Assembly: GCA_009103225.1 (NCBI GenBank)
Contig: RHPI01002402.1
Location: 1,042,366 to 1,106,365 of the forward strand
Length of the DNA stretch: 64,000 nt
Direction of reading: 5' to 3'
Source: Chlorokybus atmophyticus
Taxonomy: Eukaryota > Plantae > Mesostigma and Chlorokybus algae
Position 1 is the stretch's first letter, and each line of letters starts with the position of its first letter. Below are positions 1-63,685 of this stretch, piece after piece. The translations under genes and the position numbers were made by a program. The notes beneath the pieces were generated by a model. That model saw only the letters and a program-made list of their open reading frames with translations, searched no databases and had not been told where the DNA came from.

Positions 1-2023
1 CTCCCTTGCTGATGTTGGAGTGGGGGGGGGGAGCNCCACCGACCTTGCTGTGGTGCAGCGCATTAAGGACATTGAGCCTAGCTTGAAACGTCAGCTGATT
101 GTATCCACCTTCCTCATGACCCCCGTCATCTTCTTGATCTCGCACTACGCGCTGCCTGCTGAGTTCACCATGAAGATTACTGGTGCTGCCGACAAAGTTG
201 TCAAGAACTGGCACGTGTTCTGGTGTGTGACATCAGGCCTTTGGGCGGGACTTCTCATCGGTTACGTCACGGAGTACTTCACTTCCAATGCATACACTCC
301 AGTGCAGGATGTTGCGGATTCATGCCGCACAGGAGCCGCAACCAACATCATTTGTGAGTGCCTGTTGCCTGTTGCATTGGATAATCAAGGGGTCTTGCTT
401 AGTGGTGCAGCTGGTCGTCAAGTCTGTATTGAGTATGGCCAGTCACTAACGCGTGGTGGTTATGAACTAATCAGTCAAGACTACTGCTGACTGCCTGCAT
501 GGTTTGCACGCAGTTGGCCTTGCGCTTGGCTACAAGTCGGTGATTATTCCAGTATTCGCCATCGCAGCGGCTATTTTCACCAGCTTCAGCTTTGCTGGCA
601 TGTATGGCATTGCATGCGCCGCTTTGGGCATGTTGTCTACACTGGCTACTGGACTGGCTATCGATGCGTATGGCCCGATCAGTGACAACGCTGGTGGCAT
701 TGCTGAGATGGCTGGCATGGGTGAGGCAGTCCGTGACCGTACGGATGCCCTTGATGCTGCTGGTAACACAACTGCAGCCATTGGCAAGGTACGCAAGCTC
801 TTTTCACCTATTGGCCACAATTGAAGATGCGCTGTCTTGTAATCTGGTTACTGTTGTCGATGGGGAAGGGGGTTCACCAAAGAATGTTTTCTTTGCTTGC
901 TTTACAGTCGCATGGTCAGGTCAGGTCGTCGCATCAAGCTGGTGCAGTTTTCTCAGTCGAGTATATTGTCATGTCTTGGCGTATTGGTAGTTGCTGGCTA
1001 AGCAGTCACTCCCCACCTTGCCCTGCACAGACAACGCAAAGATATGCAGAATCGTCACATGGGTGTGCACACTTATGCAGAACTTCGACTGTGACGGTTT
1101 TGCTGCTGTCGATCAGGCAGGGTGCAATGTGGTCTGAGTTTGTTTGCGCTTCCATGCAGGGCTTTGCCATTGGCTCAGCTGCTTTGGTGTCCCTTGCGCT
1201 GTTTGGTGCCTATGTCACACGCGCTGGCATCAGCACTGTTGATCTGCTCAAGCCCTTGGAGTTCTGCGGCTTGTTGGTCGGAGCTATGCTACCGTATTGG
1301 TTCTCGGCAATGACAATGAAGAGTGTCGGCAAGGCTGCCTTGGCCATGGTTGAGGAGGTCCGTCGCCAGTTCGCTGAGATCCCCGGCCTTATGGAGGGCA
1401 CTGCCCGCCCTGACTACAAGCGATGCGTGAAGATCTCCACCGATGCCTCAATCAAGGAAATGATTCCTCCAGGCGCTCTGGTCATGCTGACACCGGTGGT
1501 TGTTGGCATCCTGTTCGGGCCTGACGCCCTTGCTGGTGTCCTTGCTGGTGCCTTGGTGTCGGGAGTGCAGGTACATGTGCTGTCATTCAGGTTTTAACAG
1601 GTCTATCAAAAGGATCCTTGTTTGCTGCAACTAACCTTGATACGTCTCCCCAGATGGCCATTTCGTCCTCCAACACTGGTGGTGCCTGGGATAATGCCAA
1701 GAAGTACATTGAAGTGAGTACATATGTCTTTGCAACAGTGATGCAGTTTGGGCTAACGGCGTTTTGTGTTTGGCCTTTGCAACAAAATAAGCTGACATAA
1801 TCTCAAAAATCTCCAGGCTGGAGCGTCTGAGGCGGCGAGGGCACTGGGTGGCAAGGGATCCGATGCCCACAAAGCTGCTGTCACTGGTGACACTGTTGGC
1901 GACCCCTTGAAGGACACCTCAGGGCCAGCTTTGAACATTTTGATCAAGCTGATGGCTGTGGAGTCCCTGGTCTTCGCTCCTTTCTTCAAGACGCATGGCG
2001 GCATCATCTTTAAGCTTTTCTAG
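1..2023 (+). CDS. AVP1: Membrane-bound H+-translocating pyrophosphatase (V-PPase), 5'-partial, spliced
   Basis: Signature motifs [31 protein letters not shown]|[21 protein letters not shown] and [21 protein letters not shown]. Exons are about <1-352, 514-789, 1160-1570, 1654-1713 and 1817-2023 with GT-AG junctions; stop TAG at 2021-2023. Confidence 0.97.
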
Positions 2024-43994: not shown

Positions 43995-46900
43995 TGTTAT
44001 AGTTAAGTAACACTACATTAGGGCCTTAACACTAGGTTAACGGCCCTAATAAGGCTTAATAGGCTGTATAATCCCGTTGGGACCCTTATTTAATCCTAAA
44101 TAAGGGCGGGGAACCTCTATGGAGGTAGCACACCGTTACATTCCCCCCCACTTAGGTTTCAATGTCCTCATTGAAGGGTTAGCAAAGCCCCATCACGAGT
44201 CACAAAACGAAAGCAGTGAGAGAACCAGGGCCGAAGCGGTAAAGATGTCTGCCAGCACCCTTTTACCGTTCGCGTGTGGACACAGTACTCCAGTACCCCC
44301 GAAGAACCTCTTGGCAGTTGGTAAGATTCCTTTCGGGCTCCCATGTATTGTGTTCAACACCATACCCTTTCCATTTCACCAAGTAGGACGGCGCGCGTCC
44401 GCGTCGAGGCTTACGGTGACTTAGGATTGCTTCCACCTCATACTCAAATGTATTGTCACCATCCACTGCGACTGGGGGTGGAGGAGGTTGAACCCGACCG
44501 TCTGATCGGTACGGTTTCAGTACACTCACATGAAACACATTGTGAATTCGTATCGACATTGGTAAATCCAAACGATACGCGTGAGTGCCGACCCGATCAA
44601 TCACTTTGAAAGGGCCTATCCAGCGAGGGAAAAACTTGCGGGTACCCACTCCCTTGATGGATACGTTTTTGGTACTTAAAAGCACCGAACAGCCCACATC
44701 GTAGGTGGCCTCTCTACGATGCGCATCAGCTTGGGCTTTTTGTCTGTCTTGCGCTGCGCGCAGACAGTCTTTTGCCAACGCTAACCTATCCTGCATGGCC
44801 GAAGCCATCTCGCGCGCTGCAGGTACGCGAGTCACGTCAGTAGCGGGCAACTTAATGTTCGCAGGACTTAGTGGATGCACTCCGTAATTCAAGAAGAACG
44901 GAGTCTCCTGCACACTCTCTTGCCATGCATTATTGATCGCAAATTCAGCCATTGGGAGATAAATATCCCAATCACTCTGATTCGGGCTCACATAATGCCG
45001 GATGGTTTCCTCAATCACTTGATTGGCGCGTTCTGTTTGACCATCCGTCTGTGGATGGTAAGCAGTGCTCATGTTCTGCTGAATGTGTAAGAAGCTGCAT
45101 AGCGACTTCCAAAACTGAGCCACAAATCGCGGATCGCGATCTGACACGAAGTTGCGGGGCAAGCCATGCAACTTGAACACAGACGCGACAAAAACCATCG
45201 CCAACTCACGGGAGCCTATCTCCGTGCGACAAGGGACAATGTGGACCATTTTTGTTAAACGATCCACGAAAACTGCAACCGCAGTGTGACCTAATGCTGT
45301 CTCTGGGAGCTCGGTTATTAAGTCCATACTCACACTTTCCCATTTGCCATCAGGAACAGGCAAAGGTCGCAGCAACCCAGCGGGTTTCTGACGTAACGGC
45401 TTGTCACGCTGACATTTGTCACAGGTGTCAACATAACGCTTTACGTCAACAGGCAACGATGGCCACCAGTACAGCTGTTACGCTGCCCTGGTAGTCTTGC
45501 GATTTCCAAAGTGCCCAGCGTACGGTGGGTCGTGTACATCAGCTATGCATTGCATGCGTAGCCCAGCATGGTCAGGTATCACCAAGCTAGCACCCATATA
45601 ATACAAGTTGTCTCGTGCTTCAAGCTGTTGTATATTCTCTTGCCGTGAGAACCATGGGTCTAAGGAATACCCATGCAAAACAGATTGCACAAATGCATCA
45701 TTAGCGGGCAATGTAACTTGCGTCGCAAGCAATTGCGCACGCATAACTGCCAATAATGACGGACAGCGACTTAAAGGATCTGCCACATTAGTTCTGCCAG
45801 GCCGATATACCCATTCAAAAGTAAATCGCGACAGAAACTCATTCCAGCGAGCTTGCCTACGTGACAAGGTCAGCTGCGTTGAGAAGTATACTAATGGGTT
45901 GTGATCAGTCACCACTGTGAACTGAACTCCCTCTAAGTAACATCGCCAAGTTTCGAGAGCATGTACGACACCAAGCAACTCTTGCTCAGTAGTAGTGTAG
46001 TTTACCTCCGCTGGGATAAACTTCCTACTTTCATAAGCACATGGTCTGCCGTCTTGCAGTAGTACTGCACCACACCCAAGGGTGGAAGCATCACTGACCA
46101 CAGTGAAATGTTTATCCCAATTTGGCAATGCCAATACTGGAGCTGAAGTTAATGCTAACTTCACTTGTTGCATAGCAGCTTCTTGGTCTGACGTCCAAGA
46201 AAATGGCGCGTCCTTTCGCAACAATTTAGTCAAGGGCATTACAACTGTAGAATAACCCATCATAAATTTGCGAAAATAATTTGCCAATCCCAAAAATGAT
46301 CTCAGTTGATGAATATTTTTGGGTTGAGGCCAATTCTTGACAACTTGCACCTTGCGAGGGTCAGGCTTTACACCCGCACCACTCACAACATGTCCCAAGA
46401 ATGGTAACTCCGATTTGCAAAAGTCACATTTTGCAAGGCTGGCAAATAAATGATGCTTCCGCAACAAAGTAAACACCGCTTCTAAGTGTTGCTTATGTTC
46501 CTCTTTGGTTTTACTAAAGACAATAATGTCATCCAAGTAAACCATAACATACTTGCCAAGTATATTACCGAAAATTTTATTCATTTCCTTCTGAAACACA
46601 GCAGGCGCATTCGTCAATCCAAAGGGTAGCACTTTGTATTGATAATGGCCCGAAGGTGTTCTGAAAGCTGTCTTATAGACATCAGCGGAATGAATTCGGA
46701 TCTGATGATATCCACTTGTCAGGTCTAATGTACTGAAGTATGCATTACCTGATAGTTTATCAAACACGTCATCAATCCGTGGCAACGGGTATCGATTTTT
46801 CACCGTGATTTTGTTTAAAGCACGATAGTCCACACACATGCGCAATTTTCCATTCTTTTTCATCACAAATAGGATGGGTGCGCCAAAGGGTGAAGAACTT

Positions 46901-48330
46901 GGTTCAATCAATCCTTTTTCCAATAACTCCTTGATTTGTGTTTCCATTTCCCCCCTTTCTCTAGGGCTTAGCCTATATATTGGCCGAAAAGGAGGATCAC
47001 TATCAGGAATTAATGGTATAGTGTGTCCGACACCTCGGTCAGGAGGCAAGCCCGGCAACTCATCTGAGAACACATCTTGATATTCCTCAATGAGGTCTGC
47101 CACACCTTCAGTACTACCCGGCGCAATGTCATCTGATGAAGACAAATGTACCAGAAAAGCCGGTGTGTTTTTGCGCAACGCACGTTTCACCTGTAGTGCC
47201 GTGAGTAACGCAGGGTCGGGTTGCTTGAATTCCAAGCTATGCGACCCTTTCACAGACAATGTAATCCGCTTACCGCCTTTCTTTACTGTGCACAAGCGTG
47301 CACCCGTATCCAATGTCATTGTGACATTATTTTGCCATTCTTGGCCTAGTACCACATCAACACCAGATATGTTGATTGCTACTACTATAAAGGCAAGATT
47401 GGCATAATAATTACCAATTTTAACCTTCAATTTTACTTCTCCCGTCACTGGCAATGTACCCCCAGCACCGGCAGCCGAAAATGCTGAGGGTTTGCGCATG
47501 ATTTTATTGCGCGCAACCCATTGCTCGTCCACGAAGTTGTGTGTCGCACCAGTGTCAATCAAAAACGAGCTATTCACACCTTGCATTGTGCCACTGAATG
47601 TCCACAACAAAGGTACCACTCGTCCTTGAAAGGTAGCCAAGAATCCGTGGCTAATGCGGGGGTTGATTAATATTGCTGATAATCGAATTGTCCCAGTCTC
47701 GCGCTTGGTGAATTGTTTTAAAACAGTACCCCCTCGAGTATACTTCAACCATGGGCCATGATATTTTGGCACCATTGCTACCACACTCAGGGATCTGTGT
47801 TTACATTGCAATTCACTCAATGTGTGCAACACGTCGGTAAGCATGTTAAATTTCACATGTACCAGTACACAAGTATTTACTTCCACTGTTGCAACATCAA
47901 ACAGTGGTAACTTGTGATGTGTTTGCCATGCATGCGTCATTACATGCATTTGAGACAGATTATCAAACCAGTTAACTGCTTGTATCTCAAGCAACTGACT
48001 ATCAACCTTTGCTACATCAGCCACAGCGTAATCCTATTCAACCTGCGATATACACACTTACATTGCTAAGCCATGTACGTGTGTATATTTTAATAATATT
48101 GTAGTTATACAATCCTACTCGAACTATGCATATTGTGTATACCGCTATAGTTACATGTGAAGTACACTTTTACACTGATATACACTGTTGTAATTCCTCT
48201 CCTACACTACATGTGTAGTAGTGTGTATACTATACATGTATGCACATAGTTTGTGTATATACGAATGAGTCTGCTTCAACAGCACACTACTCCACTTCTA
48301 TTCCCTACTCGAGTACACTGTTCAACCATC
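43995..48330 (-). mobile_element. Ty3/gypsy chromovirus LTR retrotransposon; 3' LTR present, 5' LTR and gag missing or decayed
   Basis: The pol gene lies upstream of a PPT (GGGGGGGAA) and an LTR beginning TGTAAC at 44140, with a probable end ...TAACA at 43995. No second copy of this LTR occurs in the window. Confidence 0.92.
44263..48024 (-). pseudogene. pol: Chromovirus pol: protease-RT-RNaseH-integrase-chromodomain, broken by one in-frame stop
   Basis: LIDTGATHNF, RMCVDYRALN, VYLDDIIVFS, VSDAS, DHNPL, HxxxxxxH...CDKCQ, RWIGPFKV and the chromodomain EYEVEAIL...YLVKWKGY...NTWEPERNL. The two ORFs are in the same frame, separated only by TAA at 45478-45480. Confidence 0.96.
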
Positions 48331-49382: not shown

Positions 49383-49665
49383 TGACGCGATACACCACGT
49401 CCTTTTGCTTCCTGCAAACGCACAATGTCAGTTGGACTAATGCAATATACCATTATAATCACAAACCGTCCGCACCTTACTGTTACTGGGCAAAATGCAC
49501 GCATACCATTGCTTAAACTGCAAATTGCCACCCGTTGCAATATGTTTTCCCTGCCGGCCGACTAAATATTGGCAACGGCCGTGCACCTGAAGACACTGAT
49601 TTAGACTGTCGTGGCTCAGGCCACCTGTAATCTTGATACAGGGACCTAATTATAACTTCCGTTAC

Positions 49666-50030
49666 TATCAGGCCCTTTTTGTTACAATTTAGTCTTTAAC
49701 AGTTGACTATGCCTAACTAACAGGCGCCTGTTAGTTACCTGTCAGGCCTTAACAGGTGACTTTATTTAATTAACAGGCACCTGTTAGTCACACACCAGGC
49801 CTCAACAAATGACTTTGTGTAATTTACAGGCAACTGTTAGTTACACATCAGGCCTTCTTAGGTGACTACGACTAATCAACGGGCACCTGTAAGTTACACA
49901 TCAGTCTTACTTAAGTGACTCAGCCTATGTGACAGGCACCTGCAGGTTACACACCAGTCCAGCGCAGGCGACTAAGCCTAATTCACAAGCACCAACTAGG
50001 TAATTATCGACAAAATAAGGCATTCTTTAA
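49666..50030 (+). repeat. Degenerate 53-bp tandem array (about 7 units), repeated at ~60670-61035
   Basis: Core ACAGGCACCTGTTAGTTACAC. Unit starts at 49719, 49772, 49825, 49878, 49931 and 49984 give an exact 53-bp period. Confidence 0.92.
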
Positions 50031-50353
50031 CAACTAAAGGTGACTAATGCCTAACTGTCGTCATATGTAATTGCATAGCTTGACTACACGCGATTGTCAC
50101 TGACTTCCAGCATTGTTATGTGCCTGTGCTGTGTACATGTACCTGAAATGTGTACAGTGTCTCTCAGTCACTTGCCAAGGCTTGTAGTTCGATTATGTGA
50201 CTCGAATGCAGTTCTGTTATATATCATAGGGATGCAAGTATTGATGTGCACGAGCATAATGACGATTGACTGAGCTGGTTTAAGATGCACAACACTCAGT
50301 CACAAGAGCCTTGTAGCTATGTACACTACCAGCTAAACGGACTACCAACTGCG

Positions 50354-52181
50354 CTACAGCTCCTCTCCATCATCGCTTTGCTCGTCATTACGGAACACAG
50401 CACCACGCGCTGGGGCCTGTGGAGGAGACGCCGGAGCTTGCTCTTCCTCCTCAAACGGTTGTGCCAGCCAATCAAATGCCACTTCTGCCTCAGCGAGCGG
50501 GTCACGAGCTGCTGTCTCTTGCGGCCGGCGCCGATTGGGATCTTTCAGGTATTCGACACAAGATGCAGTGCGGCGTTTCACAAGGGTGAATGGCTGGAGG
50601 GCTGCGTACCGTTGCCTCATCTCCCGCTTCATTGACATGATCATGGTGTTGATTTCGCTGAGGTACTCTTCATGTGTGTCTATGCTGGCAGCTAGGAGAG
50701 GGTCTCCATCCTTGCCCTTTAGGATGCGCTCCACCTGCGTAGTTTACAGGCATGTCTTAGTGGCATCGAAAGCCACTATTCACTGCAACGCGTCTGCAAG
50801 CCTGTAGTTTGGGGCTACAGCGTTCCTGAATTGCTAATGCTGGAGTTAAGAGTGCTCACCGTAAGCAATAGGTATGCGAGGTGGTTGACTGTCAGCTGCC
50901 GGCGACCAGGTGTAGTGACGGCGTAAGACCAGCATTGCACGATCATTTGCCAGATTATGGGATTGCCCCATTCATGGATGTATCTCCTCCGCTCCGGGTC
51001 TGCAGTGTCGGTCACCTCAAATCTCCGCCATGACTTGTCTGCGACAGTCATACCGACAAGGCATTGGTCAAAAAATAGATAGTTCAAGTTGAGCCTGCAC
51101 AAGGCTAGAATAGTGCCTGTGACTTACTTTGGAGCGCGTTGCGCATCTGGGCTTTTTGGGTCTCGGGGTCCATTAGGGCGTCGATGTGCCTGATTGAATC
51201 GGTTACAATAGGCGAGATGAGTACGTGTGTATGGAGGCTGAGTAAGAAGGCAGTGTTGCATAGCAGACATGGTGGTGAGGGACCCAACTCACTTGCGCTT
51301 GTTGCTGTTAAACAGTGTCCACTTGTACTCCTTCTCAAGGACATGCTTGATCTTGGTGACGTTCTCAGACCGGACCTGCGTAGCTTTCTTCAGGGCGACA
51401 CTCCAGTGGAAGGGGCACTCCTTGGGAGTCCAGTACACCTCATAGAACTTGGCCGCATCGGCCTCGTCGTCATGGTCGAAGCCAACTACCTGTCACGGGC
51501 AGGTTGGTCAGTGTCACGGTGCAGTGCGGTCATGAAGCATTCACAGCACCTGACACATGACGTTACGAATAGTGTCCTCCTTGGGATAAACGTGGCTCTC
51601 TACCCAGTGGCCGTTTATGATTTCAACGACGGCATCTCGCAAATGCTGTCCACAGAAGAACAATCCGTTACACACATACACACAGTGTCACAGTGTCACA
51701 CAGTGCTTACCTCGTTGCCAATCTTCCACTTGCTTGGGGAAGGGTTGCTGACGGCCGAGGTTGCCACGTCACGGCCAAATGCGTTTGGGTTGGGGGTTCC
51801 AATCGACCCTCTGCAAGCACAACCACATGAGTCATGCTGCCAGCCATGAAAGATGCAACCCTCACAGTTGCAAAAGAAGAACAACGTGCACAGTGTATCC
51901 AGAACGCATGCAGTGAGTCACTGTGCTAGTCATGATAGAAGCAAGCATCCAAGTTAGAAGTTGAGCAAGAAGCAACGTGCACAGTGCATCAAGAACGCAT
52001 GCAGTCTAGCTTGCCCTTGCGACTGCGGTGTCAGGTGGAGTTGTTGTGATGTGCTGGGCGTTAGCGCGGGGTCTTGCTGCGATTGGTTGGCGACGGTTGC
52101 CTGGTTGAACACTGGGGGCAATGTGGACAACTGGCGCCGACCTCCACGACGAGGTGCACTTACGGATGGACCACGAGGCAT
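50354..52181 (-). CDS. Gene X copy 1: 7-exon hypothetical protein
   Basis: Phase-consistent exons from MPRGPSVS... through GSIGTPNP..., HLRDAVVEIING..., VVGFDHDD...NSNKR, HIDALMDP..., KSWRRFEV...HLAYLLLT and VERILKGK...DDGEEL*. The first intron needs a GC donor. Confidence 0.75.
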
Positions 52182-52359
52182 CTCTCCAACTGATAGTCGG
52201 GTGCCGCCTGTTTAGCTGTTAGTGGCGCTGCCGCCTCCAACGCTGCCGCCGCCGGTTGGCCCGCCCGAATGTACGAGGCGCGAAAACGAAAATGAGGCGG
52301 TTTTGAACGTCTAGAGTCCCGCATTAGAGTCGCACTTGTAGTGCGTCCTTTCTCCTATG

Positions 52360-52525
52360 GTTGATGGTACGACTTATGCGTTCGTGCCATCCATGCTTCG
52401 TACAACCATTGGTAACAATGGTTGTGTCGTAACATATATGATACGACAGAGGCATCTCTCGTCCAACCCCAGCGATTGCCGTACAATGGCTCTGTCGTAC
52501 CATCCATGGTACGACAGAGGCATTG
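52360..52525. promoter_or_regulatory. Palindromic TCGTACCAT motif cluster upstream of gene X (also at ~63365-63530)
   Basis: 14-bp inverted repeat CTCTGTCGTACCAT-cc-ATGGTACGACAGAG at 52490-52519, a 10-bp inverted repeat at 52402-52425 and ATGGTACGA at 52364. Confidence 0.6.
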
Positions 52526-52599
52526 CTCGATCAGTCCAAATGGGAGTTAGCGTGCACTCACCCAAACACGCTTCATTGATGGCCGGATGATGGCACGCG

Positions 52600-53960
52600 T
52601 AACAACACCTCGCGTAGTGTGTTACCAACCTTGCACTGGAGTCGTACGTTGCCAACTCCCTCAGCCACCAGTACTTCACCACCGAAGCCCGCCACCTTGA
52701 TTGTGGACGTCAGCTTCCTGTAGCCCTCCATCACCTCCTTGTTTGGTGTGAGATGACGATCGCAGCCAGAGTCCACCACCCAGAAAGCTGTGCCCGCCCT
52801 CGAACTGGATGCAGTGAAGGCGACATGTTTCTCCTTGTGTTGGTGCTCGTTGCCGCTGTTGTTTCTTCCTACAGTCCTTCACAATGTGCCCCTTCCAACC
52901 ACACAAGTGGCATGTGAGGTCTTTGTGACGAGGATTGCCTGGCTTGTTGCCCTTGTACTTCTCTTCATGGTTGCTCTTCTTTGCGTGCTTGCCGGTGTAG
53001 AAGGCGACGGCATCCGCTTGCTCGTCCTTCTTCACAACCCTCTGCTCCACGGTGAGCAGCTTCGGTAGCACATCGTCCAACGTCAACTCCGATGATGACG
53101 TCTCCAGCAGGGTTGCGACGACCTCGTACTCTGCTGGTAGCCCTGCAACAATGGCCAGCACTACCTCCGTCTCCCCCATGTTGTGGCCGACGTTGATGAG
53201 GTCCGCCCACAGCTCTCTCGCGCGCGCAACATACTTTGTGATGGGTTCCGCTGCCTCCTTCCTGAGTGCGCTGAGCTGCTTGCGTAGATGCAACTTTCTG
53301 GCATTGTTCTTGGCTCTGAAAACGGCTGATAGCTTTTCCCAAGCTTGTCTACCATCTTCACATGCAGTGAGCATGGGAAAGTGATGCGGTTTGCTGTTCA
53401 ACACAAGCAAAGAGTGTGCTTCTGCTGAATGCTCTGACCACACAGTGTTCGCTCCTGGTGTTGGTGGTGGTGCCTTCGGATCAACGTACTTCCACACCTT
53501 CTTGTGGATGAGCAAGGCCTTCATCTCCACGCACCATGTGTTGTAGTTGTCGGTGTCCAGCTTTGCAATCTGCCCCTTGTCGTAGGTCGCCTCCATCTCT
53601 GTCGTGCCTGCCTTTTCTTGCAGTTGACACCCAAGGCTCTGCTACCAACAAGCTACCGTAGTGTAGAACTACTATGCACACAAGCTAGTCTCACACTCCT
53701 CAAGCGTAGTGTGGGCCCATAACCTGTTGAAGGACTAGCATGCACATGTAGTTGAGGCAAGCATAGATACACAAAGACAGAGCTACCGCCACCAGAGCAT
53801 ACACAAGTCACATCACATTCATCTATTACAAGTTGTCCGCTGGTTCTTATACCAGCCAGTTACACACACGTCTACGTTTGCAAGCACTGCGTAAGCTATA
53901 CTCAGCTTTTTGACACACTTTAAGCTGCGTTGTCTTTCTTACAACCAGAGCTTTCCAACA
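52600..53960 (-). mobile_element. Truncated Ty1/copia element: 5' LTR, PBS, gag and protease only
   Basis: LTR TGTTGG...TCAACA at 53960-53725 (236 bp) and PBS GGTTATGGGCCCAC (copia-type half-tRNA-iMet primer site) at 53724-53711. The gag ORF 53596-52676 has LDTDNYNTW...MKALL and CHLCGWKGHIVKDC; the protease motif WVVDSGC follows after a frameshift. The element ends abruptly at ~52600. Confidence 0.93.
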
Positions 53961-54136
53961 AGCTCTCACACGCCTAATATGAGTAAGTATACGCGGAGAT
54001 ATAAAGCAATTAGTAAGGCTCCTGTCTGGAGTCCGGAGTCTGGTCCGACGACGCCATCTTGCTAAGTCCGGACCTAGTGCTCGTCCTTACGACCTTCTAC
54101 TCCGGTGTGGAGGGTCGATGCTGATCGTATGTAGGA

Positions 54137-55259
54137 ATGACTCTCAACGGCCCGCTGGATGGGGAATGGTATGCGGGCGTTGTGGAATCATTCAAGCAAG
54201 CGTCAGGTCAGCATCGCTTCGTGGCGTGCGAGATTGAGGACGCATCATATATGCATGGTGCAATGGAAAATGTCTTTACAGGGCAGCACCGTATAGTATT
54301 CGATGACGGTGATTGACCACAAACCATCAACTTCAAAGGGCACAACGTATTCGCGTACACATCAGTTGACGGGGCACGCCATGTTCTGCGCGCCGGAGGG
54401 GAGAACGTCAATCGCAAAGTAAGCCCGGACGGCATCATTGTTGGTCCCTGGCCAGCACCACGGCCAGCCTTGACCACATACACGCCATTTGACAACCAAG
54501 CTGGGATGCACACGCAAATCAAGGGCACTCGACCTATTCTGCGGCGGTGGCGGTGCCAGTGTCGGTCTATACCACGCAGGCTTTGACGTGACGGGGATGG
54601 ACATAAGTCCCTCCTCTGAGTACCCGCTGCCCTTCATACCCCGCAATGTATGCACCCTGAGTGCAGGAGAGCTGAGCGAGTACGAGCTCATTTGGGCCAG
54701 TCCACCATGCCGGGCCTATTCAGGTGCTATCCCAGCACCTCAACGGGCGGCACATGGCACATCCTGGAGACACCAGGATATGATACCGCTCGTCCGACGT
54801 CTGCTGCTTGCAAGCCAGGTCAAGTTTGTGATTGAGAATGTGCCAGGAGCAGCTTCCTCATTCAAACCCAATCTGTCCCTTTGTGGCACGATGTTTGGCC
54901 TATCAACTTTCCGACACCGTCTGTTTAAGACACAGCCAGTGGTAGCTACCCCATCAGCACGCTGCTCGCACGCGGGCAAGGCAGTTGGACTGCTATCGCC
55001 GCACCTGTCCGCTAGCGCGAAGAAGACAATCGTGACATCAAACGCGCCACAGCAGATGTACCCGGTCTATGGCCTTCCAAGCACCAGGGGCGGCATTGCT
55101 GCGTGGCAAACAGCGCTGGGAGTGCCATGGATGACCTCGGCCGTTTCCATAGCGAATGCAGTTCCTCCCGCAATGGCGGAGTGCATAGGGCGTCTCATGC
55201 TTGAAACAATGGATATGCGCTGTGACTACCCTCCTGTGTCATGGAACTATGAGGCTTGA
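54137..55259 (+). CDS. C5-cytosine DNA methyltransferase, predicted spliced to an upstream Tudor domain (Tudor exon has an in-frame TGA)
   Basis: MTase motifs I DLFCGGGGA, IV WASPPC, VI ENV, VIII RHRLF and X ANAVPPAMAECIG lie in an open frame at 54501-55259. Upstream exons 54137-54206 and 54282-54418 encode PLDGEWYAGVVESF...GQHRIVFDDGD* and join by GT-AG introns 54207-54281 and 54419-54500 in the correct phase. Confidence 0.88.
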
Positions 55260-55462
55260 GTGTGGTGCACTGTATTGATGCTTAATGCCACACGGCGGAC
55301 TGATTGTTGAATGTTGCATGGATCATTCGATTGTGGTGACAGTTGTGCAGTGACAGCTGCCCGGTATTGTACACGTCCACATGCAAAAGTCTTAGCATAC
55401 GATTAGCAATGCCTAACTGACTGATATGCTCCAAACTCAGAGTAGTGAGACAAGTACATGTG

Positions 55463-58400
55463 TCACGTGGAAGTGCAGTGAACGTTCACCCAATACTTGC
55501 CCTCTTGTACACGGGCGCTGTCCTTGTCAAACATGGGGAGCAGCTGGACAATGCCTTTTACTTGCTCCAGAGTCACGACATCGAGATGTGGACCGCCTCG
55601 ACGCTTTTCCCATTCCAGAGCGATGCACTTTGTGTCGCTCGTCACATCCAGCTTCGTGTACCAGCGGACAAACACGACCTCCTTCCACACGCGCTCGCCG
55701 CTACCACCCCACACCACCACGCGCAGAAAAAGGAGTGCCTGAGCCCACCACGTCACGTTCACACCGTCCTCATCACCTTCCAACTCAAGTGTAGAGAACC
55801 AAGGCCGCCCATGGAACATCCCAGTTGCGCGCGCCATGCTGACTCCTGATGTCATGTACACCGCTGCGCCTCCGTTCACCACGCGAACAGCACGCCACCC
55901 GTCGGCCAACTCCAGTTGTTCCCTCCTCAACCAGCTGTCCAGGGTGGCAGGCAGCTTGTCGGCAAATGGAGTCTTCAAGGCGACTTGGCGGCTACGCGCA
56001 GATCCGCTCCAGTACGGGCTGGACTCCCTCCTTGTCAGCACATCCATCCGTAGCAACTTGTCCGTCTTCTCCATGACATTACAGCACTGCTGCCGCGCCT
56101 GCGCCATGACCGAGCGCATCTCGGGATCCACGACCATGCCATCCTCTCTCACATATTCCGCACAGCTCCATGCCTTCAGGATACGTGCCTGGTAGTCCCG
56201 GATGTTGCCACCACGCGCCCACTGTTTGATATTTTGGGCGTGCGTCTGCTCCATGCGGTTGGCGCTGAACCAATCTGGGTGTCCACTGCTGACAATTGCC
56301 GGCCCAAAATGAGTGAGCTGATGCATCTTCTCGATCTTCCAACCTGACTTCTGTGCAGAATATGACGACAGTAGCGGATGCAACACTGCAGCTTTGAAGG
56401 CAGCCAGCTCGTTGTCGGCTGTGGTCAGGGTCTCTCTTGTGTGTTAATGCGCCTTCAGCAACTTTTTACTCCACTGGGCAAGCGATGCGGCAGCAATGGT
56501 GAGGAAATCGTCGCCCTCACTGTCGAGCAGCAAACCGTCTGCGAGGACCGGCAGCAGCTGCAGCACCGCCACTTTCTCCACCACCTAAAAGGAGTGGTCG
56601 GACAGGAAGAAATGTACTGTGCTTGTGGGTGCCTTGAAGTGCGAAACCCGCAGAGTCGCCTTGCATGCATTCAGCCTGTGCACATCTGCTCGTGAGCACG
56701 TGTTGTTGGCTTTTGTGTTCAACACAAAAGCAACACCAAAGACGTGCCTGGCCTGCAGAATCTGTCTCGTGGATGGACGCATTCGTTCCTTCGCGGCGTC
56801 GTACACAGCAGCAAGCAGGTGGTCAATGATGCCTCCCAGCACATGCATTGCGTCAGGGGCAAGACGAGAGTAGCAGTCAGCTCCCGGCACCCGCGACTGT
56901 CGCCAACCCCACAGTGCATTCTGTTGCCAAACCACATTGCCTGGTTTCACGGAAAGCCATTCATCCTCACGAATGCCGGTAATTTGACCATTACCTCCTC
57001 GACATGCATGGAGTGCTGCTCTTTGAAAGCCTTGGCTGTCTGGCGTGCATTCCTAACACCGCTATGCAGGTCCGCCCGCAGCTGACGTATTGCTGGTGTG
57101 TAGAAGGCCTCGGTTCTCAATTCCCGATCCTCATCCATCTCCAACAGATCTGATTTGATGACGAGACAAACATTGCAAGGATGTCGTGTTTGGTTGCCCG
57201 ACACAGTGCATGCGAGTGTGGCAGTCCTTTACAACACGACAAACTCAGATGTTTTACTGACAACATCCTCCATGCACTGTTTGCTGGCAGGCTGCATCCG
57301 GTTACAACCATTCATGCCCACTACCTGCAAATCGCTGATGTAGTTGGCAAGCGCGGGAAACACACGACGCTCGATGCCATTCGGGTCGATGAGCTGCAGA
57401 CCTTCCCAACTCGCCCGCTTCACATCCCTTAACACTACATTCAAAGCGTCATGGAAAATCTCACGTTTTCGAATGGGGGACGATTCCTTGCCCTGCGCCC
57501 AGGTGGGATGCCCGGCCACCGCGTGAACCACCGGCAGAAGCGCTATCATAACAACCCCCATGTTGCTAGCATACATGTCCCAACTGTAGTTGGCAAGCGA
57601 TGCCATCAGAGGGTAGCCAGAGCGCTTGCCCGCGCTGTCCAGCGTGGTCTTGTCACTGTACAGAATGGCAGGCGCCAAGTAGGACACTTCCCCCACCTCT
57701 CCTCAAATCCACCTCCACATCCTTCCACCAATCGCCCGTGGAAGGATGGCCAAAGCTGTGCTCGTCACCAGTGTACTGGAGATTGAAGCCATTGGCGGCA
57801 TGTGGATTGCCATACAACCGCGCGAGCCATACCTGCTCCGACCAAGAGCATTACTTACTATGCTGGCCTCAGAATAGATACTGCATCGATACTGCATTAG
57901 GTACTGCATTTCACAGACCTTGGCCGGCATATATGTGACGCAGATGTCCTGATCCTCAGGGTCTCCAGGCTTGCGCAGGTCAGCCGTCACGTAGTTCTGA
58001 TACGGCAGCACACTCGCATGTGCATATGTGACATGGCCCTGATGGTTGAAGCACATGCACCGCACACCGTGAACACACCTCAGATTGAGAGAAAGCAATC
58101 GTGGTCCGAAGGTAGCTGGCCGCATGCACACCGGTCTCCCAGTGGAGCACTTCCGTCAGGAAGTGTGCATTTCGGATGCACTTGATGATCCGCCCCATGT
58201 CGGAGGCCGACAGGCCTTGGCCGTTGTTGCACTGCACGAATGCCACTGCAAGAGCATGCTCCGAGCCATACCACCTGGATTCCGACGCGTGCGAAGGGAC
58301 GCCTCCACTTCCATGTTGGCGTGCCACAGGTTTCTCAGGCACACGCACACATCGAAAGCCCTCGTTCACTTCCTCCTCCTCCTGTTGCTGCTGTGCGTGT

Positions 58401-58603
58401 GTCTCCTGGAGGAATCCTTCAGCATCAAGCATGTGAGCATCCTGGATCGAACTCCCCGGTTCAACATGACCCGCATCGTACCGTAATGGACGCTGGCCGA
58501 CGTACAGCTTGATCTGCTTGCACACCCTGCTGCTAATAATGTGCATGTAGACCGAGCTGCGTGTGGCGAAGCGCATGTGGCAATACGGACAAAGGACTCC
58601 CAT
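55463..58603 (-). mobile_element. Plavaka-type (CACTA-related) DDE transposase gene with N-terminal zinc finger; spliced, with a frameshift and stops
   Basis: CPYC...H...C, HPSTGDWWKDVE, PAILYSDKTTLD...GYPLMASLAN, IFHDALNVVL, RRVFPALANYISD, HPCNVC, PDAMHVL, KMHQLTHF...MEQTH and a C-terminal ARATGMFHGRPWF...VRWY...VQLLPMF. There is a frameshift near 57700. Confidence 0.82.
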
Positions 58604-58670
58604 ATCTCACTACTAACGTCGACACAGGTGTCGCCAATGTAACCTGCATCATATCCAGCAACACGCACAC

Positions 58671-58702
<32 letters not shown>

Positions 58703-58759
58703 GCCACCGCTACCGCTACCCTTGCATGCCAGAGGCGGGAAACTTGGCCGCCAGTCACT

Positions 58760-58960
58760 GGCTCCGTCGTACCATTATAATGGTACGATCGAGCCATTGA
58801 ACGTCCAGGGTGAGTCTGGATATATATATATATATATATATATATTCTGATTGAACCGTTTCAATGGTACGAAGATGCCTTTGCCAAAAGGTATAGGCAT
58901 TGTACAAAGGTACCATTGAAATGGTACCTTTGTACAATGGCAATGGCAGTTCGTACCATT
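58760..58960. promoter_or_regulatory. Palindromic TCGTACCAT motif cluster between the divergent transposase and gene Y
   Basis: Perfect 22-bp palindrome at 58767-58788, a 16-bp inverted repeat at 58901-58936, extra half-sites at 58864 and 58951, and a (TA)n tract at ~58821-58845. Confidence 0.6.
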
Positions 58961-59120
58961 GACAACTCTGGCAATGTCAGTCCCCCTGCGCATGAAAACA
59001 CCATTGATAGCTCCGCCAAGCTATGCCCTTACAGGGGCGTGATGCCGAGGGTATGTGGCGTTTGGAAGATCGTTGGCGGCGCTGCCAGGGGCGTAGTGGG
59101 CATTGTGGTCGAGGTCCGGG

Positions 59121-59940
59121 ATGAATTCCATGTTCGCACAGGGCGGGCAGGGTGCCGGAGGGGTGTCCTCGGTGTCAAACCCCACCAAGACTACCAAGGG
59201 CACATCCAATGACAACAGTGACTCGGGCGATATCTTACAGGGCTCCCCCTCCGAGTGGGCAAAGGCACACCACAATACTGCCTCTAAGAAAATCCGACCC
59301 ACCAGCAGCTGCGACCACGGCGACATGATTGAAGGGACCAAACAAGACTGGCATAACCAAGGTGGGTTACGATGCACTGTCAATGCCACATGCTAGGGTT
59401 CTTTTATCTTGCACATGCACAGCCTCAAGTATCTTGCACTTGACATACATTGTCAATACGACATGCACACCCTCATGCACAACCTCCAGTGTCATGCACA
59501 TGAACAGCATAACCAATCTCGCAAATGCACAGCCTATTTATACTTGCGGGAGCTCACAAGTCGCAAAATAGAAGCTGCGGAGTACCACGAACGGGTAATC
59601 CATGACCTAGTTTAATGTTTACAGCGGTAATTAAGCAGTATGCTTGCAGATTGCCATGTTGGTCAGAGTGAACCAAGAGCAGCGCGGCAGGCTGACTGTC
59701 TGCCTGGCGGAGTGCAACAAAGCGGAAGACGAGGTAAGCGTGTGTATGCTGATGGGCTAGTCCTCTGGCAGCACGCCACTCTTACAGCATTACCAAATGC
59801 AGGTGGTCACTCTCAAAGCGACCATCAAGCGCATGCGCGTGCACGGCGAGGCGCTGACATTCAAGCTGAAGGACGAAGTAGCCGCTGTACTGTCAGCGAG
59901 CGAGGCAGCGGATGAAGATGACTCCGGCGTTGAAGCATAA
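59121..59940 (+). CDS. Gene Y: intact 4-exon hypothetical protein of about 174 aa
   Basis: Exons 59121-59361, 59533-59594, 59650-59733 and 59803-59940 all have GT-AG ends and consistent phase, giving MNSMFAQGG...AYLYLRELTSRK...IAMLVRVNQEQ...VVTLKATIKRM...SGVEA*. Confidence 0.75.
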
Positions 59941-60538
59941 GACTCGTCGGAGGAGGAACAGGAGGAGGGGGTTTGAGGAGGAGTTCTGAGGCAGGCACCA
60001 TGGGTTGACAAGCTGCGCATGAGTCCAACAGCTAGACTCAATGTTATAGGGTAGTTTCATGCGCAAGTCGGCTGCTCAGTTGTACGTGGACATACTCTCA
60101 CCACTGCCCGTACATTGTATATATTGTGGGCTTTTAGGTGCAAGACCAAACAATCAGTCCAAGGTTTGTACAAGCTGCATGGCATGTTAGTGTTGGCTTA
60201 CGGCAAGAATTGCCAGCTTTTGTCAAACGGCAAGGGTCACATATTAACAGCAGTGTAACGGCGAAAAAACTGCCGGCTATTGCTGTCAGCTGTCCGTAAC
60301 TACCGGCTAACGGCCGTCTGTGCACATCGACCAAAGGGTAACTGGTTGACAACTCTTGGCCGGTTAGTGCCACTGACAACCACTTTCGGCCCGCGGCCGT
60401 CTGCGTCAGTCCACTTAAGCCAACGGCAAACCCAACAGTCCAAAAGTAATATTTCAGGCAGCAACAGGCAGGCTCAGGCACCAGTCAGTCCCTCAGTCCT
60501 TAGTCACCGTGTAAAATTTGCGACGCCCCCAAGCACAA

Positions 60539-63500
60539 CGTCGCAATATGTTTTCCCTGCCGGCCGACTAAATATTGGCAACGGCCGTGCACCTGAGGAC
60601 GCTAATTTAGACTGTCGTGGCTCAGGCCGCCTGTAATCTTGATACAGGGACCTAATAGTAACTTTCGTTACTGTAAGGCCCTTTTTGTTACAATTAGTCT
60701 TTAACAGTTGACTATGTCTAACTAACAGGCGCCTGTTAGTTACCTATCAGGCCTTAACAGGTGACTTGAAATAACTAACAGGCACCTGTTAGTCACACAT
60801 CAGGCCTTAACAAATGACTTTGTGTAATTTACAGGCAACTGTTAGTTACAAATCAGGCCTTATTAGGTGACTACAACTAATCAACGGGCACCTGTAAGTT
60901 ACACATCAGTCTTACCTAGGTGACTCAGCCTATGTGACAGGCACCTGCAGGTTACACACCAGTCCAGCGCAGGCGACTAAGCCTAATTCACAAGCACCAA
61001 CTAGGTAATTATCGACAAAATAAGGCATTCTTTAACAACTGAAGGTGACCAATGCCTAACTGTCGTCATATGTATTTGCATAGCTTGACTACACGCGACT
61101 GTCACTGACTTCCAGCATTGTTATGTGCCTGTGCTGTGTACATGTACCTGAAATGTGTACAGTGTCTCTCAGTCACTTGCCAAGGCTTGTAGTTCGATTA
61201 TGTGACTCGAATGCAGTTCTGTTGTATATCATAGGGATGCAAGTATTGATGTGCATGAGCATAATGACGATTGACTGAGCTGGTTTAAGATGCACAACAC
61301 TCAGTCACAAGAGCCTTGTAGCTATGTACACTACCAGCTAAACGGACTACCAACTGCGCTACAGCTCCTCTCCATCATCGCTGGTCTCGTCATTACGGAA
61401 TAAAGCACCACGCGCTGGGGCCTGTGGAGGAGACGCCGGAGCTGACTCTTCCTCCTCAAACGGTTGTGCCAGCCAATCAAATGCCGCTTCTGCCTCAGCG
61501 AGTGGGTCACGAGCTGCTGTCTCTTGCGGCCGGCGCCGATTGGGATCTTTCAGGTATTCGACACAAGATGCAGTGCGGCGTTTCACAAGGGTGAATGGCT
61601 GGAGGGCTGCGTACCGTTGCCTCATCTCCCGCTTCATTGACATGATCATGGTGTTGATTTCGCTGAGGTACTCTTCATGTGTGTCTATGCTGGCAGCTAG
61701 GAGAGGGTCTCCATCCTTGCCCTTTAGGATGCGCTCCACCTGCGTAGTTTACAGGCATGTCTTAGTGGCATCGAAAGCCACTATTCACTGCAACGCGTCT
61801 GCAAGCCTGTAGTTTGGGGCTACAGCATTCCTGAATTGCTAATGATGGAGTTCAGAGTGCTCACCGTAAGCAACAGGTATGCGAGGTGGTTGACTGTCAG
61901 CTGCCGGCGACCAGGTGTAGTGACGGCGTAAGACCAGCATTGCACGATCATTTGCCAGATTATGGGATTGCCCCATTCATGGATGTATCTCCTCCGCTCC
62001 GGGTCTGCAGTGTCGGTCACCTCAAATCTCCGCCATGACTTGTCTGCGACAGTCATACCGACAAGGCATTAGTCACGAAATAGATAGTTCAAGTTGAGCC
62101 TGCACCAGGCTAGAATAGTGCCTGTGACTTACTTTGGAGCGCGTTGCGCATCTGGGCTTTTTGGGTCTCGGGGTCCATTAGGGCGTCGATGTGCCTGATT
62201 GAATCGGTTACAATAGGCGAGATGAGTACGTGTGTATGGAGGCTGAGTAAGAAGGCAGTGTTGCATAGCAGACATGGTGGTGAGGGACCCAACTCACTTG
62301 CGCTTGTTGCTGTTAAACAGTGTCCACTTGTACTCCTTCTCAAGGACATGCTTGATCTTGGTGACGTTCTCAGACCGGACCTGCGTAGCTTTCTTCAGGG
62401 CGACACTCCAGTGGAAGGGGCACTCCTTGGGAGTCCAGTACACCTCATAGAACTTGGCCGCATCGGCCTCGTCGTCATGGTCGAAGCCAACTACCTGTCA
62501 CGGGCAGGTTGGTCAGTGTCACGGTGCAGTGCGGTCATGAAGCATTCACAGCACCTGACACATGACGTTACGAATAGTGTCCTCCTTGGGATAAACGTGG
62601 CTCTCTACCCAGTGGCCGTTTATGATTTCAACGACGGCATCTCGCAAATGCTGTCCACAGAAGAACAATCCGTTACACACATACACACAGTGTCACAGTG
62701 TCACACAGTGCTTACCTCGTTGCCAATCTTCCACTTGCTTGGGGAAGGGTTGCTGACGGCCGAGGTTGCCACGTCACGGCCAAATGCGTTTGGGTTGGGG
62801 GTTCCAATCGACCCTCTGCAAGCACAACCACATGAGTCATGCTGCCAGCCATGAAAGATGCAACCCTCACAGTTGCAAAAGAAGAACAACGTGCACAGTG
62901 TATCCAGAACGCATGCAGTGAGTCACTGTGCTAGTCATGATAGAAGCAAGCATCCAAGTTAGAAGTTGAGCAAGAAGCAACGTGCACAGTGCATCAAGAA
63001 CGCATGCAGTCTAGCTTGCCCTTGCGACTGCGGTGTCAGGTGGAGTTGTTGTGATGTGCTGGGCGTTAGCGCGGGGTCTTGCTGCGATTGGTTGGCGACG
63101 GTTGCCTGGTTGAACACTGGGGGCAATGTGGACAACTGGCGCCGACCTCCACGACGAGGTGCACTTACGGATGGACCACGAGGCATCTCTCCAACTGATA
63201 GTCGGGTGCCGCCTGTTTAGCTGTAAGTGGCGCTGCCGCCTCCAACGCTGCCGCCGCCGGTTGGCCCGCCCGAATGTATGAGGCGCGAAAACGAAAATGA
63301 GGCGGTTTTGAACGTCTAGAGTCCCGCACTAGAGTCGCACTTGTAGTGCGTCCTTGCTCCTATGGTTGATGGTACGACTTATGCATTCGTGCCATGCATG
63401 CTTCGTACAACCATTGTTACCAATGGTTGTGTCGTAACATTTATGGTACGACAGAGGCATCTCTCGTCCAACCCCAGCGATTGCCGTACAATGGCTTTGT

Positions 63501-63602
63501 CGTACCATCCATGGTACGACATAGGCATTGCTCGATCAGCCTCAATGGGAGTTAGCATGCACTCACCCAAACACGCTTCATTGATGGCCGGATGATGGCA
63601 CG
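60539..63602 (+). repeat. ~3.07 kb direct repeat, copy 2
   Basis: Near-identical to 49533-52598; visible differences are mostly transitions. Confidence 0.98.
61359..63186 (-). CDS. Gene X copy 2: 7-exon hypothetical protein
   Basis: Same exon structure as copy 1, and the reading frame appears open. Confidence 0.75.
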
Positions 63603-63685
63603 CAGGGGCACCAGGACAATGACGGGTCGAATGTCAGGCTTGATGGGCCTGGGTTCGACTAGGAGGCGGAGGACCAGGAGTCGGA

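Follow-up and report, generated by a model that had tools for sequence, protein, structure and literature searches.

Transposable elements that carry cytosine methyltransferases (MTases) have been described mainly among retrotransposons; Plavaka DNA transposons are known for erasers of the TET/JBP type. DNMTs are carried by retrotransposons (PMC5890265) such as SymbioLINE-Dnmt, SymbioDIRS-Dnmt3 and the streptophyte Gypsy/Copia-DNMT3 elements (PMC5890265; bioRxiv 2026.05.21.726589), and the EpiLTRs combine a chromodomain, DAM and a DNMT on one element (bioRxiv 2026.05.21.726589). DNMT retrotransposons were proposed to methylate their own copies, and DNMT-bearing DNA transposons in marine viruses are also mentioned (PMC5890265). 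A further source reports TET/JBP-carrying Plavaka transposons of fungi and defines Plavaka (CMCT clade) by C(2)C and H(3-4)H motifs lying after the second D and before the E (PMC12730594). A foreign enzyme joined to a chromatin reader is exemplified by the bdelloid N4CMT, i.e., a chromodomain with a bacterial amino-MTase (PMC8885841), and fusions of readers with transposable elements are given as common (bioRxiv 2021.11.30.470311). The green-algal ChloroDNMT often bears a PWWP domain, Table S1 of the same source lists six orphan DNMTs in Klebsormidium and none in the other five of its six charophyte rows (PMC12344493), and the Tudor domains of plant PDS5 and MSH6 prefer H3K4me1, which is bound via a three-ring cage (bioRxiv 2022.05.28.493846).

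Here we present the analysis of a locus in a stretch of 64,000 nucleotides from Chlorokybus atmophyticus (the window), in which a compact C5 MTase domain faces a Plavaka-type transposase gene and follows a Tudor-like region in the same direction. The coordinates of the features are summarized in Table 1.

Table 1. Features of the locus and its surroundings, in positions of the window.
Feature	Position	Strand	Remarks
Host pyrophosphatase exon	1160-1570		One 100% match (P0126), then 78-85%, mostly land plants plus a charophyte
Copia gag	52676..53641	-	Retrotran_gag_2 (E 3.5e-32), DUF4219 and zf-CCHC (Pfam); element that interrupts the gene
Copia 5' LTR	53725..54149	-	TGTTG start beside a primer-site-like motif; depth jump; contigs diverge
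Tudor-like region	54152..54355	+	Sequence pattern; uninterrupted copies have the first strand, which the LTR insertion removed here
Multicopy block, minimum extent	54152..59700	.	MTase, transposase and right flank; spanning contig, similar depth
75-nt tandem duplication	54206..54280	+	First copy is the proposed 'intron 1' (GT 54207, AG 54281); self-match at a lag of 25 aa
Premature TGA	54314..54316	+	X1, X2 and X3 read C at 54314, each at full depth
Linker	54356..54500	+	Includes the proposed 'intron 2' (54419-54500); extra base 54496 in the window copy
C5 cytosine MTase domain	54501..55259	+	252 codons; C-terminal DYPP tail
Plavaka-type transposase gene	55463..58606	-	PF18759; convergent with the MTase; broken in the window copy

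The stop-to-stop frame at 54474-55259 (+) comprises 261 codons and contains motif I without a preceding ATG, as had been stated in a preliminary description of this DNA. In an alignment with 20 homologues, motifs I, IV (SPPC), VI (ENV), VIII (RHRLF) and X follow each other in standard order, the SAM-binding loop, the Pro-Cys, ENV and RxR residues and the C-terminal PP motif are all kept, and the catalytic cysteine is invariant; the motif names are those which we take to apply. Of the full set of catalytic motifs claimed earlier, a canonical motif IX is not recognisable in this alignment. Regarding profile matches, Pfam DNA_methylase (PF00145) yielded 21.2 bits (E 2e-4), i.e., a score just below the gathering cut-off of 22, as also holds for close homologues such as P0001, whereas PHROG 363 matched with an E-value of 2.9e-22 over residues 13-240, which correspond to the whole domain. 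Matches below E 0.05 were not found with phmmer among solved structures, and NCBIfam yielded weak TehB matches and nothing else. A C5-MTase fold is predicted: the model (pLDDT 81.7, pTM 0.84), which had been proposed as a check, has M.HhaI as its best structural match (Z 17.4, rmsd 4.0, 225 aligned residues), and C5 enzymes account for all 50 best rows listed in this comparison. The first row of a Foldseek search against the PDB was a carboxymethyltransferase of the same fold, so that the C5 chemistry of the protein is an assignment by inference; among the viral Foldseek rows a Pithovirus protein came first. RFTS, BAH, chromo, PWWP and UBA domains gave no Pfam match in the three window frames scanned, in keeping with the described absence of the accessory domains of MET1, CMT, DNMT3 and DRM, and the identity of the window MTase is 11-20% to DNMT structures versus 34-47% to phage-type enzymes. 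The window frame is accordingly read as encoding a real compact C5 MTase of the phage family, of predicted fold and presumed activity. Its branch in the trees described below measures 1.16-1.32 changes per column, which together with the retained catalytic residues suggests long purifying selection.

The homologue search matched 773 of 2048 candidates, and most of the best 120 listed were 205-290 residues long. Phage records matching the window MTase numbered 319 (283 over at least 80% of the query), all with less than 60% identity. These homologues, the PHROG 363 match and the fold match to M.HhaI support the foreign, phage- or prokaryote-type origin that had been proposed. The highest HMMER scores (180-212 bits) were obtained for P0001-P0005, which, like P0247, P0248, P0250 and P0255, contain an MBD (PF01429) inside the target-recognition region and are unnamed in their sources; within this group, five PF01429 matches lie above and two just below the Pfam cut-off. 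A profile search, which contributed several of the MBD-bearing proteins, yielded 6369 matches at E<=0.001, of which the best 150 were listed and 21 inspected. The window MTase shows an alignment gap at the place of the MBD insert, has about 20 residues there and gives no PF01429 match. A C-terminal tail of the DYPP type occurs in eight of 269 homologues, all of the MBD-insert group, and in the window protein. P0255 is an MBD-bearing gene model, presumably from another green alga to judge by its label. A second group (P0006-P0009, P0011, P0062, P0102, P0120 and further matches) carries a longer, degenerate MBD-like insert that aligns with the MBD insert; these relatives lie on contigs of up to 245 kb, and a viral origin of the group is suspected. 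Among the matches listed in scans of contigs from viruses, metagenomes and genomes, the members were short and of prokaryote type to judge by match span, and in 242 of the contig loci there was no match to either type of insert (MBD or long), to the tail or to the transposase.

Trees were computed from 70 rows (quick) and 30 rows (careful) chosen from 123 proteins, with P0121-P0123 trimmed to the domain and P0121 and P0123 left out of the careful tree. The window MTase grouped with the two insert groups with a support of 98 (70 rows) and 99/97 (30 rows, insert columns included). With the 197 core columns only, however, support fell to 61.7/82, and the identities of the window MTase to the three groups overlap on these columns; the kinship with the insert groups is therefore suggestive.

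Some relatives are of interest in their own right. The phage-type C5 MTases with an MBD insert may be DNA-read, DNA-write enzymes. P0123 is a diverged MTase of this family situated inside a Gypsy-like pol, between RNase H and integrase, and its bacterial source label looks doubtful. P0121 and P0122 are Pithovirus-type proteins in which the MTase domain has as its fusion partner either a second C5 MTase or a 2OG-Fe(II) oxygenase domain.

Five of seven sequencing runs contain part of the stretch. Contigs of runs X1, X2 and X3 (two samples in two studies, X1 and X2 being one sample) were compared with the window over 53700-59700 and 54130-54620, using the best-supported 40 of 178 and 40 of 51 variant rows, respectively. 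The ATG at 54137, previously taken as the start of the gene, belongs to the Copia LTR, which spans 53725-54149: contig depth in X2 and X3 is 940-1370 within the LTR versus 100-340 beyond it, contigs depart from the window sequence at 54138-54148 into a different flank, with a purine tract after 54148, and uninterrupted copies continue upstream of 54152 with a different sequence of 251 nt or more. The motif near the TGTTG start of the LTR is one which we take to resemble a primer site; the remainder of the Copia element is absent to the left of about 52600. The in-frame TGA at 54314 is CGA in all three DNA runs that cover the site (two samples, two studies), which bears out the earlier guess at its origin. 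An extra base at 54496 of the window copy is absent in X1 (7.22 of 7.22 depth) and X2 (96.4 of 96.4); in X3 the gap is seen in 2.5 of 133.6 depth, with a depth of only 2.5 reaching 54503, so that the other X3 contigs seem not to bridge the position. The second putative intron thus measures 81 nt in X1 and X2 at full depth and in the X3 contig reaching 54503, and the reported length of 82 looks private to the window copy. The transposase gene of the window copy lacks 2 nt at 57696 relative to the majority. Because the LTR replaces the 5' end and the stop and the extra base follow, the window copy of the MTase gene is dead, as is consistent with the loss in its transposase. The 18 C-to-T changes of the window copy (6 CpG, 5 CpT, 4 CpC, 3 CpA) favour no context, and no target motif emerged from the 32 places at which majority and window differ in the best-supported rows listed.

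In the uninterrupted copies, a loose end of 30 nt upstream of 54152 (X1, X2, X3, X5) is in frame, ends in the residues VMVHW and supplies the Trp strand missing from the window copy; it has no match elsewhere in the window at up to three mismatches. Once this end is counted and the 75-nt duplicate is skipped, a W-P-x-D...W-Y-x-G-x-V...H-x-I-x-F-D-D-G-D pattern is seen by eye, which we take to be a Tudor pattern of the PDS5/MSH6 type with three cage aromatics; skipping the duplicate also restores what we assume to be single-Tudor spacing. Translation of the duplicate would break up the barrel, and might thereby keep the aromatic cage from forming. Pfam Tudor families gave no match at E<=0.1 in 54125-54313 and 54317-54499, which are incomplete, unspliced pieces lacking the first strand. 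Likewise, none of 37 homologues scanned had a Tudor match, most of them probably being single-ORF gene calls, and a search for longer proteins yielded three matches, none Tudor-like by its listed Pfam domains. Of the Tudor-MTase fusion put forward initially, the in-frame linkage and the guessed Trp strand are thus found in the uninterrupted copies, whereas Pfam does not recognise the reader in the incomplete pieces; that the N-terminal part would work as a Tudor is what we infer from its residue pattern.

The fusion had been attributed to splicing, with a gain of two introns after transfer, which could be read as a sign of domestication. Taking out the two GT..AG segments, of 75 nt (54207-54281) and 82 nt (54419-54500), does join the parts into 322 codons in phase, with one stop (54314), but in the majority form, as given by the best-supported rows, the frame, about 369 codons long when counted from 54152, stays open as far as the MTase stop under any splice choice, so that the fusion holds and the two introns are unneeded. 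Without the extra base the length of each segment is divisible by three, and neither contains a stop in the majority; indels of other copies measure 6 nt (54443), 3 nt (54541) and about 3 nt (loose end after 54214); and the second acceptor, AAG, has no pyrimidine tract before it, whereas its donor, GTAAGC at 54419, is canonical and the majority acceptor at 54281 reads TTTGCAG. The best self-match of the region, at a lag of 25 residues, was equalled in one of 300 shuffles, and the identity between the 75-nt duplicates by codon position (11/16/6 of 25) favours coding in the past; part of this bias, however, is also what a comparison between a neutral and a constrained copy would give. The location of GT and AG at the borders of the 75-nt duplicate, the spacing restored by removing the 75 nt, the intron that the adjacent transposase seems to contain and the distribution of variants (seven places in the 75 nt versus none in 54282-54385 except the stop, among the best 40 of 51 rows with uneven cover) speak for splicing. 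The host pyrophosphatase gene has gaps of 163-368 nt. In a junction homology test the retained form was exceeded by 18% of random 11-mers and the spliced form by 78%. No spliced form was seen. Four short contigs of X5 (an RNA run by guess) lie here, one of which passes the first donor by 16 nt without a joint; they were set aside as evidence. An alternative acceptor at 54517 was rejected, because it does not agree in phase with the GTAAGC donor and its use would delete residues that align with homologues. We think it probable that each of the two segments is coding and the protein made without splicing; the 75-nt segment is probably coding and possibly spliced, and joining of Tudor and MTase by two introns gained after transfer is unlikely.

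The transposase gene ends 204 nt from the MTase stop on the opposite strand and matches PF18759 with 69.8 bits (cut-off 26.3); it encodes an N-terminal C2H2 finger and a DDE core, probably with a stop-containing intron at about 57229-57324, and C(2)C and H(3)H motifs were read by eye. One X1 contig (54152-56422) crosses the Tudor-like part, the MTase and the 3' part of the transposase. Depth in X2 bins is mostly 96-230 along the block, with minor-variant contigs at 2.5-6 and a dip at skipped repeats (58524-58925), which suggests many near-identical copies, contig depth itself being no copy number. Since the MTase faces the transposase, one contig spans both and both share a similarly elevated depth, the MTase gene is most likely the cargo of a multicopy Plavaka DNA transposon and not a stand-alone host gene. 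Plavaka termini (TGT..ACA or CATCA..TGATG with a target duplication of 2-3 bp) were not found in convincing form in 59700-60560, the left end being absent from the window, so that linkage and depth are the grounds for co-mobility. If the gene were instead part of an endogenous segment of a giant virus, or a host gene after domestication, with an unrelated transposase beside it, this would agree with the Pithovirus protein as best viral structural match, with the long-insert relatives on large contigs and with the green-algal gene model that we take P0255 to be; given the shared depth and contig, flanks made up of Copia, Gypsy and other repeats, and no viral hallmark family in the 15 window frames scanned, we regard it as highly improbable. 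The gene might instead be a passive, decaying passenger, composed of an MTase piece from a virus and a Tudor piece from the host that were picked up by the transposon, came to be in frame by chance and serve no role. Apart from the window copy, one diverged copy has changes of glycines in motif I (54544, 54552), so that some copies do decay; moreover, orphan DNMTs that derive from viruses often are silent (PMC12344493) and the activity of Symbiodinium retrotransposons needs no encoded DNMT (PMC5890265). Yet no listed majority difference closes the long open frame, the majority brings back residues like those of the homologues ahead of motif I (54507, 54517, 54519) and the catalytic motifs are intact despite the long branch, which makes such a passenger quite unlikely.

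Several further observations concern the surroundings. GCC and TA microsatellites and short palindromes are found upstream of the transposase (58659-58940), and a small, probably spliced gene with an acidic C-terminus, recognised by eye at about 59640-59980 (+) on the right side of the multicopy block, is a possible second cargo. An element of 3,066 bp, with palindromic sub-repeats of about 52 bp and no notable Pfam match, is present in two copies (49533-52598 and 60539-63603, 97.9%) that bracket the block of Copia, MTase and Plavaka. A chromoviral Gypsy pol with integrase and chromodomain is located at 44263-48033 (-). The matches of the pyrophosphatase exon (Table 1) put the host among the streptophyte green algae.

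The account that we prefer, with moderate confidence, is that of a broken copy of a gene, likely the cargo of a Plavaka transposon, which unites a likely Tudor reader and a phage-type C5 MTase in one open frame. An intact element would make a single Tudor-like/MTase protein from one open frame, the Tudor-like part would bind methylated histone tails, and the docked MTase, presumed to be active, would methylate cytosines in its vicinity, likely those in and around copies of the element itself; the choice of the element's own chromatin as target is a tentative step. Doubtful, but worth stating, is the broader interpretation that a eukaryotic cut-and-paste transposon has an enzyme of its own which reads histones and writes on DNA, and which stems from a lineage of phage-type C5 MTases, algal or viral and so far undescribed, that was twice wired to chromatin readers (an MBD insert in the relatives, replaced by an N-terminal Tudor here). 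A DNA transposon whose phage-derived writer is fused to a reader would offer foreign MTases a ready route into plant-lineage chromatin, and an enzyme of 250 residues with MBD-bearing relatives would be small enough to test how a reader redirects a prokaryotic MTase.

In a literature search that covered few subscription papers, no report was found of a Tudor-fused C5 MTase in Plavaka or another eukaryotic DNA transposon or of an MBD-insert MTase, nor of the DNA target of PHROG 363-type phage enzymes; transposon-borne DNMTs and reader-fused foreign MTases being already known, the locus is a variant whose combination was not found reported. The closest enzymes are the PHROG 363 MTases of phages and prophages (e.g., Gordonia phage Yakult gp45, mycobacteriophage genes labelled 'DNA methyltransferase' and the N-terminal domain of a Pithovirus LCPAC201 protein), which share the short target-recognition region and a Cys/His motif with the window MTase and are 34-38% identical to it across some 90% of the domain in the 25 rows listed; the window protein differs from them in its eukaryotic transposon context, its N-terminal Tudor-like part, an extra helix and the C-terminal tail. 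In the MBD-insert group the reader is inside the target-recognition region, whereas the Tudor-like part stands in front of the MTase. The DNMT retrotransposons and EpiLTRs likewise carry a cytosine MTase, the latter with a histone reader on the same element, whereas here the vehicle is a cut-and-paste DNA transposon, the MTase is phage-type and not DNMT3/DNMT4-like, and the reader lies in the MTase's own frame. ChloroDNMT is also a green-algal MTase with a Royal-family reader, but the window protein gives no PWWP match; in the terms of PMC12344493 this protein would be one of the 'orphan' DNMTs. The bdelloid N4CMT has the same histone-read, DNA-write architecture on a foreign enzyme; it is a domesticated host gene that writes 4mC, in contrast to the predicted C5 enzyme with a Tudor-like part on a multicopy element. 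In Amoebidium cargo repeats are flanked by Plavaka, which is again a Plavaka with cargo, and compared with the TET/JBP-carrying Plavaka transposons, whose cargo is an oxidase, the cargo described here would be a writer.
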